IMG/VR virus record: IMGVR_UViG_3300037454_000334
Location: 1 to 64,000 of that record
Direction: 5' to 3' (one strand)
From: a virus
Taxonomy: Duplodnaviria; Caudoviricetes
Length of the DNA: 64,000 nucleotides
A program made the position numbers and the translations under genes. This document shows positions 2,718 to 51,715 of the stretch, in pieces (positions within the stretch are counted from its first letter, which is position 1; every line of letters begins with the position of its first letter). The notes under the pieces were generated by a model, which was not told where the DNA came from, searched no databases, and saw only the letters and a list, made by a program, of their open reading frames with translations.

Positions 2718-3127
2718 ACTTTTGATTCTTCTTGTTCGGTTATTATGATGTCTAAGATACCGCAGGCTTCTGAAAGTCCTGCACGGTCATCTATCAGGAT
2801 GTTGTAGTAAGGTTTGCGGCAACCTTTGCAGACTATCGGGTTTTCGTTCACGTAGTCGATGCGGATGCCGAAGTGCTGGCAATAATGGCGGATGAACGCC
2901 AGTTTCTCATCGCCCTCATTCGACGTGAGCAGTATCATCTTGTGGCCCTGCTCCGAGCATCGGCGCAACAGACTGATGATGCCGCTGTAATCGAAGCCCT
3001 GGTTGTGATAGTCGAAGATGGTATTGTCAAAATCGAAGGCGACAAACAGGGAACCGTGCGCAGCCAGTTCGCTGCGCAACCGCTCCACTTGCATATCCAT
3101 GTTGATGGGAACCCGTATCATTTCCAC
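2714..3127 (-). CDS. HAD-superfamily phosphatase-like protein
   Basis: Motif I FDFDNT and motif IV LIDDRAG; overlaps both neighbours. Confidence 0.75.
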   Translation of the reverse strand: MEMIRVPINMDMQVERLRSELAAHGSLFVAFDFDNTIFDYHNQGFDYSGIISLLRRCSEQGHKMILLTSNEGDEKLAFIRHYCQHFGIRIDYVNENPIVCKGCRKPYYNILIDDRAGLSEACGILDIIITEQEESKV

Positions 3128-47587: not shown

Positions 47588-48142
47588 CTACTTCTCTGCA
47601 TTAGATGCCTGTGCAGGCTGAGGAAAAAGTTCCTCGTATGGCTCCCATTCGATAGAATCCTTACGAGCCCATCCGTCAGACAGCGTTTGGTTAATATAGG
47701 CAACAGCCTTGATATAGAAGTCGTCAGCATCCTCCATTGTCTCAAAAGTATGATACACTGGCAAACCATCCTCTGTTTCACCCATCTTGAATGTAACAGG
47801 TAACGTGGCGCCATTCTTTTGTACAGCCAGGTCATAGGCTGATTTGAAGTTAAACTGATTCTCAGTAGAGAGCCATACAGGAATAACCTCTTCAGAACCG
47901 ACAGGCGACCACGTAAATCCTGAAATAATAATCTCATCAGTCTGCGCATTGATGTCACCAAAAATTGCGTCCTTTACCATCTGCAGCGTCAACTGAGAAC
48001 ACTGTGTCTTGGGAATATAGATTTCATACCACTCATACAGGTTCTTTCCTGCAACCTTCTTTAGATCGTAACCGATGACGATGCGCGAATTTTCTTCGCG
48101 AACGAGCGAGAAGTCGCTCTTTTTTCCACTCATTTTGTTCAT
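47588..48142 (-). CDS. DUF4376-like tail-associated protein
   Basis: VWLSTENQFNFKSAYDLAVQ..GATLPVTFKMG...GWARKDSI. Confidence 0.7.
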   Translation of the reverse strand: MNKMSGKKSDFSLVREENSRIVIGYDLKKVAGKNLYEWYEIYIPKTQCSQLTLQMVKDAIFGDINAQTDEIIISGFTWSPVGSEEVIPVWLSTENQFNFKSAYDLAVQKNGATLPVTFKMGETEDGLPVYHTFETMEDADDFYIKAVAYINQTLSDGWARKDSIEWEPYEELFPQPAQASNAEK

Positions 48143-49409
48143 AATCCTGTTGTTTTAATAAATTAATAAAATATTGATGTCGTTCTGTAATCTTTGTCAT
48201 ATCCTCACTGAACACACCGAGCCGCATAAACTCTGCTCGAAAGAAAAGTTCTCGGCGAAGGCGGAAAGAAGCCGTATGAGAGAATATACCGAGATAGGAG
48301 CTGATAGTACGCAGCATCTTGTCGGCGGTAGTTTTGCCTCCTGCCAGACTGTTTGTTGGACGAGACATTGAAAGCCACTTTGGACGCAGTGACGGATGTG
48401 TCAGATAGAAGATGTTTCTTCTGATGCGCCGCAAAGTGTGATTCGATACATAAGTGCGCCATGGCTTGATAAAAGCACCGAGGAATTCTACACCATGATG
48501 TACCTCGCTGACTTCGAGTTTGCCCATGTGTAGTTCCAAACCAAGTTCCTGAAACAGGAATGATCTGATCCGAGTCACGAGCGACAACAACCACTCCTTG
48601 TTGGCACTGATGACTACCGAATCGTCTACATAACGTCCGTAGTTCTTGCATTTCAGTACTCGCTTCATAAACTGGTCGAAGATATTGAGATAGACGTTCG
48701 AGAAAAGCTGTGAGGTCAGATTGCCAATTGGAAGCCCGAGCCCGTCCTCTGTCTTCAGCAGGCTCTTGGCAGGATCTAGATCTACCCATCCCTCCAGCGA
48801 ACCGACAATAACACAGTTCTCCTTTGGATTCAACAGTGCAATCTCCGCTGTGAGCCAACATAAAAAGTCGATGTCTAGTCTGTCTGACCATCTCTCGATA
48901 GAGTGTCTGCATATACGATGCATAGCCATCTTCCTGAGCGAAGCGGTTGCTATCTCCAACAATTTTTTCCTGACGATGTGCATAAAGTAACCTCGGATAT
49001 CCAGGTGCATCGCATAACAAGGACACTGCCAGTTTCTCGACTCGCGGCGCAACATATCCGTTACCCGATTTATACCATAATGAGTACCGCGTCCAGGCAC
49101 ACAACTGTAGGAGTCCTGAATAAATGTACGCTCGTAGAGCTCGTGCGTGTAGTTGTAATAAAGGTGATGAACGATGCGGTCGCGAAACATAGCAGCAAAT
49201 ATTTCGCGCTTCTTCGGATATTCCACAATAAAGCACTTCGATGGCTGAGCCACATAACGACGACTGATGAGGTCGTCGCATAATTGCTCCATGTTCGTCT
49301 TTAAGTCGGACTCCCACTTCACGACATACGACATCATACCCTTGCCACGACGTGCATCGTAGTATGCAGCAAACAAATCGCGCAGAAGTTGTTGCCTTGT
49401 AAGCGTCAT
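48033..49409 (-). CDS. DGR reverse transcriptase
   Basis: KKREIFAAMFRDRIVHH, LDIRGYF, GLPIGNLTSQLFSNVYL, YGRYVDD, EFLG; TR directly upstream. Confidence 0.95.
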   Translation of the reverse strand: MTLTRQQLLRDLFAAYYDARRGKGMMSYVVKWESDLKTNMEQLCDDLISRRYVAQPSKCFIVEYPKKREIFAAMFRDRIVHHLYYNYTHELYERTFIQDSYSCVPGRGTHYGINRVTDMLRRESRNWQCPCYAMHLDIRGYFMHIVRKKLLEIATASLRKMAMHRICRHSIERWSDRLDIDFLCWLTAEIALLNPKENCVIVGSLEGWVDLDPAKSLLKTEDGLGLPIGNLTSQLFSNVYLNIFDQFMKRVLKCKNYGRYVDDSVVISANKEWLLSLVTRIRSFLFQELGLELHMGKLEVSEVHHGVEFLGAFIKPWRTYVSNHTLRRIRRNIFYLTHPSLRPKWLSMSRPTNSLAGGKTTADKMLRTISSYLGIFSHTASFRLRRELFFRAEFMRLGVFSEDMTKITERHQYFINLLKQQDYEQNEWKKERLLARSRRKFAHRHRLRSKEGCRKEPV

Positions 49410-49434
49410 CTTTCATCACCGACATTATAAAAAA

Positions 49435-49802
49435 TTAAGAAAGAAAAGGAGCTTGTCCAGAAAGGAGTGCTGAACCGCGCGGACCGAGAAGCCGTTGAAC
49501 CGATTGTTGTTGTTCTGCGGGTTGACACCACCAGAGTTGAAGTTCAAGTTCCGACCATTCGTGGCGGAGTTGAGCGAAGCAGCCCAGTAGTTGCCGTTCG
49601 AGCCGCGGTTGTTCCAAGACGTGCCATTGCCGTTGCCTGAGCACGGAAAAATGGCACAAGCGATCGTCACCTGATACGACGTTCCGAAGGGGTTGTACAA
49701 GACAAGACCATCGGAGGTCTTTGATTTTTCCTGCGGCTCGGAGCCACAAGACGGACGACCTATGAACTACGTGTCTGAACCGCATCCTTTTCTTTTCCTT
49801 AT
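49435..49802 (-). ncRNA. predicted DGR RNA (leader, TR and spacer) closed by a terminal stem
   Basis: 5' AAAGAAAAGGA pairs with 3' UCCUUUUCUUU; internal hairpins. Confidence 0.6.
49470..49651 (-). repeat. DGR template repeat (TR), 182 bp
   Basis: Ungapped match to 50540-50721 with 17 mismatches, 16 at TR adenines; AAC-rich. Confidence 0.97.
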
Positions 49803-49806
49803 TATA

Positions 49807-50409
49807 TTAGAACAATGCGGAGCACTGCCGTTTGAGTATTCGCAGCACTTTCAAAGCCTCATTGGGCGTAATGTCCTCTACAGGTAATGCCACTATCTGC
49901 GCTAGGATATCGCTCATACGCATCGGTTGATTCTTTGTTCCCGTCAGCGGAAGCAAATCATCCGCAGGGATGTCCTTGCCTGTCGGTTGCTTGTCATCAC
50001 CTTTTATAGGAAACTGTTTCTTCCATTCAGAGAACTGCTGTATGAGAGAATCATAACTCATCTCGCCAAGCGATGGCGGAAGTTCAATGGCAACATCAAT
50101 TAAGGTGTCGCTAACAGGCTTGAAACTAATCTGGTTATCATTGGGTATGAACTTTGCAAGCGACGTGACAGGGAAACCGACAAAGATGATGGTGCCGCTC
50201 GAAGACTTTACCTCCTTATGCACGGGCTTCAGACGATGGGAACTCGTCTGTGCTATCTGATCATCGGTAACAGCAAACTCACGACAAAGCCATGCGCTCC
50301 ATTCGTAGGCTTTATAGGTATTCCCCTCACGAAACAAATGAATAACATTCCAATGCTCTGTACCCTCACGCTGTTTCTCGACCTCAAAGATTTCCTTATA
50401 TGATGCCAT
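49807..50409 (-). CDS. DGR accessory protein, MutS domain I-like (MSL class)
   Basis: IHLFREGNTYKAYEWSAWL...FVGFP resembles the MutS N-terminal mismatch-binding domain; sits between VR and TR. Confidence 0.75.
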   Translation of the reverse strand: MASYKEIFEVEKQREGTEHWNVIHLFREGNTYKAYEWSAWLCREFAVTDDQIAQTSSHRLKPVHKEVKSSSGTIIFVGFPVTSLAKFIPNDNQISFKPVSDTLIDVAIELPPSLGEMSYDSLIQQFSEWKKQFPIKGDDKQPTGKDIPADDLLPLTGTKNQPMRMSDILAQIVALPVEDITPNEALKVLRILKRQCSALF

Positions 50410-50467
50410 AACAAATTCTATTTATTGATATTTGCCTTTGAATCATCATTCCCGCTGTCTCTGCGCT

Positions 50468-50484
50468 CGCCGCTTGGAGCGGCG
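50468..50484. other. GC hairpin downstream of VR (DGR target-recognition element)
   Basis: CGCCGCT-TGG-AGCGGCG inside a longer imperfect palindrome at about 50443-50509. Confidence 0.7.
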
Positions 50485-50536
50485 GCTACAGAGCCTGCGT
50501 GAACGATGATATTGGTAACTTCTTGGTGACACGTAG

Positions 50537-51715
50537 TTACTGAACCGCGCGGACCGAGAAGCCGTAGAACCGATTGCCGTTGTACTGCGGGTAGACACCA
50601 CCAGAGCGGAAGAGCAAGTACCGACCATTCGTGGCGGAGTAGAGCGCAGCAGCCCAGTAGCTGCCGCGCGAGCCGCGGTTGTTCCAAGACGTGCCATCGC
50701 CGTCGCCTGAGCACGGAAAAAAGAGTTTCTTTCCGTTAATCTTAGACTTCAAATAGATACCCACTATACTATTAACTGTCACGAGCTTGTTGGCAGTCGA
50801 TGTCGGAATGGTTGTCGTACCGTCAGCCTGCAGATACTCTATGTTATTGAAAAGCTCAGCATATTCATCGGTGGTAGGCATGCGCCATGGCGCACCAAGA
50901 TTGGCACGGGCGGCATCCATAGACGGTGGAATATTACCAGTGAGAGCTGCTCCTGGTGTTGATGCGTAAGGGCCGTCGTTACTGCTTCCCCAGTCGTAGG
51001 TGAACGACGATGCGTTGGCAGGGTTATGACCTTCTGTGTTACCCCATGAGAAGAACGTACACTCATACTGGTACTCTGATGCGGCAAAACCATTTGCCTG
51101 TGTCACGTCGATATTCTTCTTAGCCCACTTCAAGCCACTAGGCAGACCCATGTCAACCCAAAGCTCACTATCATCGTCACTCTGCTCCAGTCCGCCCATA
51201 CAGATGACGTTATAGTTCGTACCGTCATAGACAAAGGTCACGGTGGTACGTGGACGAATAACACCTGGCTGTATTGCTGAACCATTGATAACAATCGGCT
51301 TTGCGCCTTGGGCATTGATATTAAGCGTAGCTCCAGCTATGTTCACACCATTCTGGAAGAATACGCTAACGGGTACGTTCTTCAGTAGAATATAATGAGC
51401 CAGCGTAACTGTCTTCGCAGCGGTTGTAGCTGCCGTTGAACAAGAGCCGAGGCCACTTCCCGCATAAGCCATGTCGCTCGTGATGTTGTCAATCTTTGTT
51501 CCCTGTGCGGCAGTGGCGAAGTCGCTCGGCTTCTTTCCGCTGTCTGTAGGATTACCATTTCCATCCAATCCAGCGAAATTTCCACTGGTAGGATTGTTTA
51601 CTTTGTCGGCCTTTCCTTGCGCGATAAGTGTGGTCTGCTGTGCCATCGTCTCCATGGCGGTGGCAATGCGCTGCTGCGTGGCGTCGAGATTAATTGGGGA
51701 TGTAATTTCTGACAT
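50537..51715 (-). CDS. DGR target: tail fibre/receptor-binding protein with C-terminal CLec-fold VR
   Basis: WVDMGLPSGLKWA, WRMPT..E..EL, terminal GFSVRAV; VR at 3' end. Confidence 0.9.
   Translation of the reverse strand: MSEITSPINLDATQQRIATAMETMAQQTTLIAQGKADKVNNPTSGNFAGLDGNGNPTDSGKKPSDFATAAQGTKIDNITSDMAYAGSGLGSCSTAATTAAKTVTLAHYILLKNVPVSVFFQNGVNIAGATLNINAQGAKPIVINGSAIQPGVIRPRTTVTFVYDGTNYNVICMGGLEQSDDDSELWVDMGLPSGLKWAKKNIDVTQANGFAASEYQYECTFFSWGNTEGHNPANASSFTYDWGSSNDGPYASTPGAALTGNIPPSMDAARANLGAPWRMPTTDEYAELFNNIEYLQADGTTTIPTSTANKLVTVNSIVGIYLKSKINGKKLFFPCSGDGDGTSWNNRGSRGSYWAAALYSATNGRYLLFRSGGVYPQYNGNRFYGFSVRAVQ
50540..50721 (-). repeat. DGR variable repeat (VR)
   Basis: A-to-N substituted copy of TR. 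Confidence 0.97.

Follow-up and report, generated by a model that had tools for sequence, protein, structure and literature searches.

The window analysed here, a 64,000-nucleotide stretch of DNA from a virus of the Caudoviricetes, contains a hypermutation cassette, a diversity-generating retroelement (DGR), whose elements all lie on the minus strand. Read 5' to 3' on that strand, the cassette consists of a target gene, an accessory gene, a 155-nt leader, the template repeat (TR), a 60-nt spacer, and the RT gene. The features to which we refer below are the following, in the same order.

50537..51715, minus strand: target gene, 392 aa, with the variable repeat (VR) at its 3' end and a weak Fib_succ_major match at the C terminus
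50539..50537, minus strand: TAA stop of the target gene
50540..50721, minus strand: VR, 182 nt, 91% identical to TR, with 16 of 17 mismatches at TR adenines
50528..50538, minus strand: proposed guide target in the IMH-like flank 3' of VR; it comprises the last two bases (AA) of the TAA stop and the 9 nt after them, is exactly complementary to the leader guide, and co-varies with it
50515..50540, minus strand: local hairpin of the VR flank (arms 50535-50540 and 50515-50520), the 5' arm of which overlaps the guide target
50459..50493, minus strand: interrupted, G+C-rich hairpin with no T run, about 45 nt after VR, read from the sequence
49807..50409, minus strand: accessory gene, 200 aa, no Pfam family and no Avd; N-terminal ~100 residues possibly MutS domain I-like
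49774..49795, minus strand: 5' strand of P1, the leader:spacer closing helix, containing the 9-nt copy of the TR/VR end (49775-49783)
49765..49775, minus strand: guide, 11 nt, the proposed cis-priming strand, complementary to the VR 3' flank
49750..49764, minus strand: conserved motif directly 3' of the guide, comprising the linker CAUA and the 5' strand of P2 (49753-49760)
49639..49768, minus strand: structured leader RNA domain with the P2 closing stem, inner hairpins, and a conserved GGAAAAA
49662-49670, minus strand: 3' strand of P2, about 10 nt before TR
49470..49651, minus strand: TR
49440..49469, minus strand: flank 3' of TR, with an IMH*-like, degenerate version of the guide target and then the 3' strand of P1 (49440-49461)
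48033..49409, minus strand: DGR reverse transcriptase, 458 aa, RVT_1

The cassette has the properties expected of a DGR. TR and VR differ almost exclusively at TR adenines, both in the window and across the clade of related elements defined below (A-fraction 0.92). The RT gene adjoins TR, which ends 60 nt ahead of the RT start, and the RT itself matches RVT_1 (E = 2.7e-11) and has more than 5000 homologues. [quoted passage not shown] One VR was found in the 106.9-kb IMG/VR contig from which the window derives. The relatives of this element reside in phage genomes of 75–135 kb, several of which have terminal repeats, and come mostly from rumen-type metagenomes. When the cassette DNA was compared with a phage collection there was no match, and the closest RTs were at most 38% identical, so no cultured phage is a near relative. 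An ORF of 184 aa (47588-48142, minus strand) shares about 110 nt with the RT gene at the 3' end of the latter, and has a match to DUF4376 that falls just under the Pfam gathering cut-off (24.4 versus 25 bits).

Published MSL-type (MutS-like) DGRs carry avd as well. We scanned five cassette proteins, including the accessory protein, against Pfam and found no match to the Avd family. The accessory protein matched no Pfam family, and none of its approximately 100 homologues has been named. In an AF2 model (pLDDT 80), residues 3-101 aligned to MutS/MSH domain I in the top 41 rows of the structural comparison (Z 3.9-5.7, rmsd of about 3 Å over about 80 residues), and a Foldseek search with the model gave E-values of 0.07 or weaker. 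The resemblance of the modelled N-terminal domain to MutS domain I is suggestive only. The protein also contains a disordered segment (residues 138-157) and a helical pair at its C terminus.

Complementarity between the leader and the VR flank

A first-pass annotation of the window had described a leader sequence of 11 nt, about 115 nt upstream of TR, that is the reverse complement of bases following VR and overlaps a 9-nt copy of the last bases of VR and TR. Both elements are present as described. The 11-mer, GACACGTAGTT, lies at 49765-49775 (minus strand), 114-124 nt upstream of the TR start (49651), and its exact reverse complement at 50528-50538 begins one base past the end of the VR/TR homology and includes the AA of the TAA stop. 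The 9-mer, GCGGTTCAG, occurs three times: in the leader (49775-49783), at the TR end (49470-49478), and at the VR end (50540-50548). The arrangement had been called very unlikely to arise by chance, which does not hold for the window on its own. The same 3.9 kb contains further perfect inverted repeats of 11-14 nt; at least two matches of the 11-mer with at most one mismatch were obtained in 12 of 100 shuffles, and the three matches of the 9-mer (0.55 expected) were reached by 2 of 100. Judged within the window alone, the 11-nt inverted repeat is not beyond chance, and its significance derives from its position and from its behaviour in related loci.

We gathered 297 loci through alignments of the RT and the accessory protein (a locus search with a single protein gave just one locus) and located TR, VR, and their junctions by script. 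Loci in which the RT is at least about 45% identical to that of the window are referred to as the clade. Of 62 clade loci, 56 have the leader motif CA.AG(G/A)-N6-GTC, which is absent from all of 67 distant DGRs, and the bases directly 5' of this motif (which begins CAUAGG in the window) are the exact reverse complement of the post-VR sequence. For each of 110 guide/VR pairs we determined the longest exactly complementary run between the guide and the flank of its own VR; these runs had a mean length of 11.05 nt (median 11), and 89% were at least 8 nt long. Permuted pairings (10,000) gave a mean of 5.43 (sd 0.17, maximum 6.04), and random windows from the same loci a mean of 4.3.

The matched sequences themselves are diverse, with 77 distinct strings among the 110 pairs, and the register is fixed in 61 of 86 loci, such that the 3' end of the guide abuts the motif and the target begins at the AA of TAA. 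Guide and flank change together in tree order: we counted 23 both-sided changes, in 8 of 22 phylogenetically independent (sister) pairs, and the window and L002 differ at 6 of 11 positions, on both sides. The first-pass annotation had proposed looking for just such compensatory change between leader and post-VR sequence in homologous DGRs. These results support a role of the 11-nt element as a guide that recognizes the VR 3' junction by base pairing, and they give what appears to be the first comparative evidence of RNA base pairing marking a DGR target. A fossil duplication with micro-inversion, which had been offered as an alternative, is excluded by the 77 co-varying variants.

Not every match is long and uninterrupted, and interior mismatches and bulges occur in some of them. 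Twelve VRs have an exact match of only 5-7 nt, yet their mismatches are still A-biased (A-fraction 0.92), so recognition either tolerates a short guide or draws on other determinants. In several of these twelve, a longer complement is broken by a mismatch or bulge, and in one (L199) the motif was mis-detected, the covariance model described below placing it 43 nt upstream of the regular-expression position. The complement is only 5-6 nt long in L241, L268, L087, and L015. We found no correlation between the length of the guide match and the A-bias of the VR mismatches.

Two further arrangements were noted. At L227 (10530-10580), the flank complement spans 16 nt and includes 2 mismatches; relative to the motif it is displaced by 23 nt in the 5' direction, and an insert occupies the gap. 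In L302 and L303 (from the record of L003), L200, and L221, complementarity to the flank continues past a 1-2-nt bulge into the leader copy of the TR end, and the paired region may therefore exceed the exact run.

Three elements have two VRs (L001, L176, and L267), and they carry the complement after every VR. The second VR of L267 is on the opposite strand, about 7 kb beyond the RT gene, and 15 of its 15 mismatches are at TR adenines. The 48.8-kb record of L003 yielded a single VR, on the other strand at a distance of 6.6 kb, with all 22 mismatches at TR adenines; there a 9-nt match directly follows CAG, inside an ORF rather than at a stop. Both of these VRs in trans are genuine targets. We searched 16 whole viral records for more VRs and found mostly one VR in each; the L048 record is a fragment without its VR.

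The match could in principle be a consequence of homing rather than a selector of its target. If the leader were the primer and each homing event copied primer sequence into the flank by conversion, guide and flank would come to agree passively. The matches are indeed mostly perfect and their ends sharp, and placement of the primer against the flank is what the RNA-cDNA hybrid model leads one to expect (Naorem et al., 2017; PMC5703328). Such an imprint is, however, difficult to reconcile with match lengths that vary between loci from 6 to 18 nt, with the two VRs of L001, which match different, overlapping parts of the guide, with those of L176, which match over 15 and 11 nt, or with the interior mismatches and bulges; moreover, the IMH of Bordetella phage BPP-1 is not converted (PMC5703328). 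We consider this explanation unlikely.

Alternatively, the complementarity might reflect pairing between two RNAs. Covariation does not separate RNA:RNA from RNA:DNA pairing, and G:U pairs are not enriched at the helix ends (9 GU-type versus 16 AC-type of 86), so the pairing molecules are not identifiable from sequence alone. The canonical layout also has target, accessory gene, and TR on one strand, and a stop codon within the paired site. Against this, the opposite-strand VRs of L267 and the L003 record share no transcript with the guide and still have the match at the VR end. This excludes pairing inside a single transcript with the accessory gene looped out, the other alternative that had accompanied the initial description. 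In addition, the flanks of duplicated targets diverge immediately past the matched part, and regulation offers no logic for a site that is limited to VR-bearing genes. RNA-RNA pairing is thus an improbable account of the complementarity.

Fit of the guide to the VR and TR flanks

The guide target had been said not to follow TR. We found that a degenerate version of it does: the TR flank is a copy of the target shifted by one base, in which the C of the motif faces the G of the terminal CAG and two conserved mismatches stand at fixed positions. The shift and the two fixed mismatches result in weaker pairing with the guide. Out of 12 positions, 10.6 fit the guide in the VR flank and 6.9 in the TR flank, and the predicted duplex has a free energy of -17.05 kcal/mol with the VR flank versus -10.36 kcal/mol with the TR flank, the VR flank being the better partner in 71 of 81 loci (p = 2e-11). 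The proposed primer strand can thus pair with both flanks, better with the VR IMH than with IMH* after TR, and this contrast is the IMH/IMH* relation. These observations support the proposal that the guide tells VR from TR. As first put forward, that proposal combined discrimination by the 11-mer with pairing to both DNA strands; the former is upheld by the covariation, by the match at every VR including those in trans, and by the stabler VR duplex, and the latter is not, as discussed below.

Could selection act solely on the guide:TR-flank duplex, for priming in cis, with the VR flank matching merely through its homology to the TR flank? Partial complementarity of the TR flank to the guide is seen in nearly all loci, and BPP-1 needs just 4 bp by the active site (Handa et al., 10.1101/2023.10.23.563531). 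This explanation predicts a better fit at TR, however, and the reverse was observed in the 71 loci mentioned above, which makes it very unlikely.

Many VR flanks can fold a hairpin of their own over the distal part of the guide target, and we count this against the guide reading. A stem of at least 5 bp is present in 35 of 77 flanks and is rare in shuffles, and the 5' arm of the hairpin overlaps the (distal) guide target in 46 of 77. The hairpin might compete with the guide, or it might be opened by it. The second hairpin of the window, at 50459..50493, is a possible cruciform or stem-loop as in other DGR targets; L001 has a G+C-rich hairpin like it at approximately 3020-3050.

Architecture of the leader RNA

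The leader is organized around two helices. In P1, the 22 nt that lie 5' of the guide pair with the post-TR spacer, and this helix recurs across the clade (-17.2 kcal/mol with a leader's own spacer versus -11.8 kcal/mol across loci). In P2, the partner of the GG-N5-C segment of the leader motif is a conserved strand some 10 nt ahead of TR; P2 comprises 8 pairs, 5 of which show 11-20 double changes, and it closes a domain of about 100-130 nt that contains two hairpins and an invariant GGAAAAA. The CA.AG motif, which is invariant and sits directly 3' of the guide, opens P2. A scan of 49300-50700 against Rfam gave nothing relevant at E <= 1 and no family above its gathering threshold. We built a covariance model of the leader domain from 41 sequences; it found 13 further clade loci and had no match in about 80 distant DGR loci or in BPP-1. 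The TR end can also fold back, GUUCAG pairing with the spacer strand CUGGAC, which pairs with the leader copy as well (49440-49478). The fold-back and leader:spacer helices are mutually exclusive and so may constitute a conformational switch.

The 9-nt direct copy of the TR end is part of the 5' strand of P1. Across the clade this copy tracks the TR/VR ends beyond chance (longest shared string 5.73 versus 4.32 +/- 0.13 for permuted pairs), and in some loci, such as L019 and L041, it changes along with variant VR ends. Such behaviour might be expected of the bipartite guide that had been envisaged by analogy with IS110 bridge RNAs, in which the 9-nt copy would engage the bottom strand at the VR end, and the 11-mer the top strand of the flank. 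The likeness to a bridge RNA is that a non-coding RNA of a mobile element specifies a DNA site through base pairing. In the clade, however, only one strand of the site is matched consistently, and universal covariation is confined to the flank complement. The copy has a partner in cis, the spacer, and it is weak or missing in subclades that retain the guide (for example L013, L016, and L017), so that the half supposed to contact the second strand is a cis helix strand and is dispensable in places. Because no linker separates the two halves, both duplexes would presumably be unable to form on a duplex site without gross distortion. The clade has no donor-binding loop, and we noticed no IS110-type recombinase among the cassette genes examined. 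We regard a bridge-like bipartite guide as highly improbable.

We give virtually no credence to the idea that the complementary segments are DNA inverted repeats for site-specific inversion of the accessory gene: an 8-18-bp inverted repeat does flank about 750 bp, but its sequence is not conserved, there is no recombinase, the same arm is found at second and remote VRs, and one arm always starts exactly at the VR end.

Comparison with known systems and a proposed model for priming and targeting

The first-pass annotation knew of no description of such a guide. A related proposal does exist for BPP-1, in which the RNA primer was suggested to pair better with IMH than with IMH* (Naorem et al., 2017; PMC5703328). 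We read the BPP-1 sequence directly and found that Sp48-56 is perfectly complementary to 9 nt of the VR IMH and at 6 of 9 positions to the TR IMH*, in agreement with that work and with the TR:Sp duplex of a cryo-EM preprint (Handa et al., 10.1101/2023.10.23.563531). In BPP-1, the primer strand is followed by two bases and then by a duplex whose partner sits just 5' of TR (10.1101/2023.10.23.563531). Marker transfer in BPP-1 placed the information boundary upstream of the initiation site, and recognition was ascribed to IMH and a DNA stem-loop (PMC5703328), which we count against the guide reading.

The two systems are alike in three respects. One stretch of the DGR RNA can form a perfect duplex with IMH, after VR, and an imperfect one with IMH*, after TR; a short linker (four bases before P2 in the window, two bases in BPP-1) leads into a duplex partnered just 5' of TR; and distal sequences on either side of TR pair together. 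They differ in that the strand is 114-124 nt upstream of TR in the window, whereas in BPP-1 it is in the downstream spacer, the order being permuted. The match in the window clade is also longer, at 8-18 nt, and begins at the stop codon, beyond the end of the VR/TR homology, and the window cassette lacks Avd. Finally, the pairing in the window clade is backed by covariation in approximately 110 elements, whereas that in BPP-1 is a proposal from one sequence. A scan for exact matches between the spacer strand and the VR 3' region in 49 distant DGRs gave no signal (6.0 versus 5.9 across loci), although this crude measure would miss short imperfect duplexes. The primer region of BPP-1 (L299, 2830-2840, minus strand) contains AAUAGGU and the window contains CAUAGGU at 49758-49764 (minus strand), a similarity that may be due to chance.

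In DGRs that depend on IMH and a downstream DNA stem-loop (Guo et al., 2011; PMC3240598), as in the clade, a cis element directly 3' of VR marks the recipient, and many clade flanks carry a hairpin too. The clade flank, however, is set by complementarity to the RNA, and its hairpin overlaps the paired site instead of following it. The logic is also reminiscent of group II intron EBS/IBS pairing and of retroviral primer binding, in that the RNA of a retroelement recognizes a DNA target by short pairing beside the site at which cDNA is joined. Unlike a group II intron, the window DGR has no ribozyme and no reverse splicing, and it transfers the template repeat, not the element itself.

We propose, with moderate confidence, that the 11-nt leader element is the primer and guide strand of the window DGR's RNA, such that the primer of a permuted DGR RNA doubles as a target guide. 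In cis, P1 and the guide:TR-flank duplex would together form the template:primer duplex. The nucleotide at the boundary between the guide and CAUA would be placed opposite the CAG at the TR end, and we infer that cDNA synthesis starts there. P2 would be the topological counterpart of the BPP-1 'cPRT Stop' duplex. Because primer, short linker, and a duplex partnered just 5' of TR occur in the same order, the RNA core resembles a circularly permuted BPP-1 RNA in which the primer precedes TR rather than following it. In the permuted core, the primer:flank duplex would be left open and extended by P1, and the "stop" duplex would be closed by the structured domain.

The cDNA made in this way, joined to the RNA, would run colinearly with the antisense strand across VR and its flank. 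Beside VR, the guide would then anneal to the sense strand, probably when this strand is unpaired, and the cDNA would anneal to the same strand. The resulting RNA:DNA hybrid, which we presume to be needed for homing, would make VR rather than TR the target and set the boundary of integration on the 3' side, as IMH has been said to do, and the better fit of the guide to VR than to TR would give the process its direction. In E. coli, cDNA is reported to favour the lagging-strand template (PMC12875486), which is the strand that the guide would bind, and we count this in favour of the guide model.

How DGR cDNA finds and enters VR was still called unknown in work from 2026 (PMC12875486), and IMH has been defined genetically, without a mechanism attached. 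The window DGR appears to follow the DGR cis-priming/IMH principle in a new, permuted form, and its RNA combines this permuted architecture with a new structured domain that Rfam lacks. With its 77 guide/flank variants and its targets in trans, the clade amounts to a natural compensatory-mutation experiment, which turns the BPP-1 proposal into a testable general rule. More tentatively, and as a possibility that falls a little short of probable, the site that receives mutagenised cDNA in this Avd-less clade with a putatively MutS-like accessory protein may be determined mainly by a programmable RNA guide, 8-18 nt long, which would be the primer strand of a permuted RNA and would pair with the DNA flanking each VR. 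If this is true, then a new guide, or a guide complement placed behind any TR-homologous sequence, would retarget hypermutation in cis or in trans, and the guide suggests a simple handle with which to retarget DGR mutagenesis.
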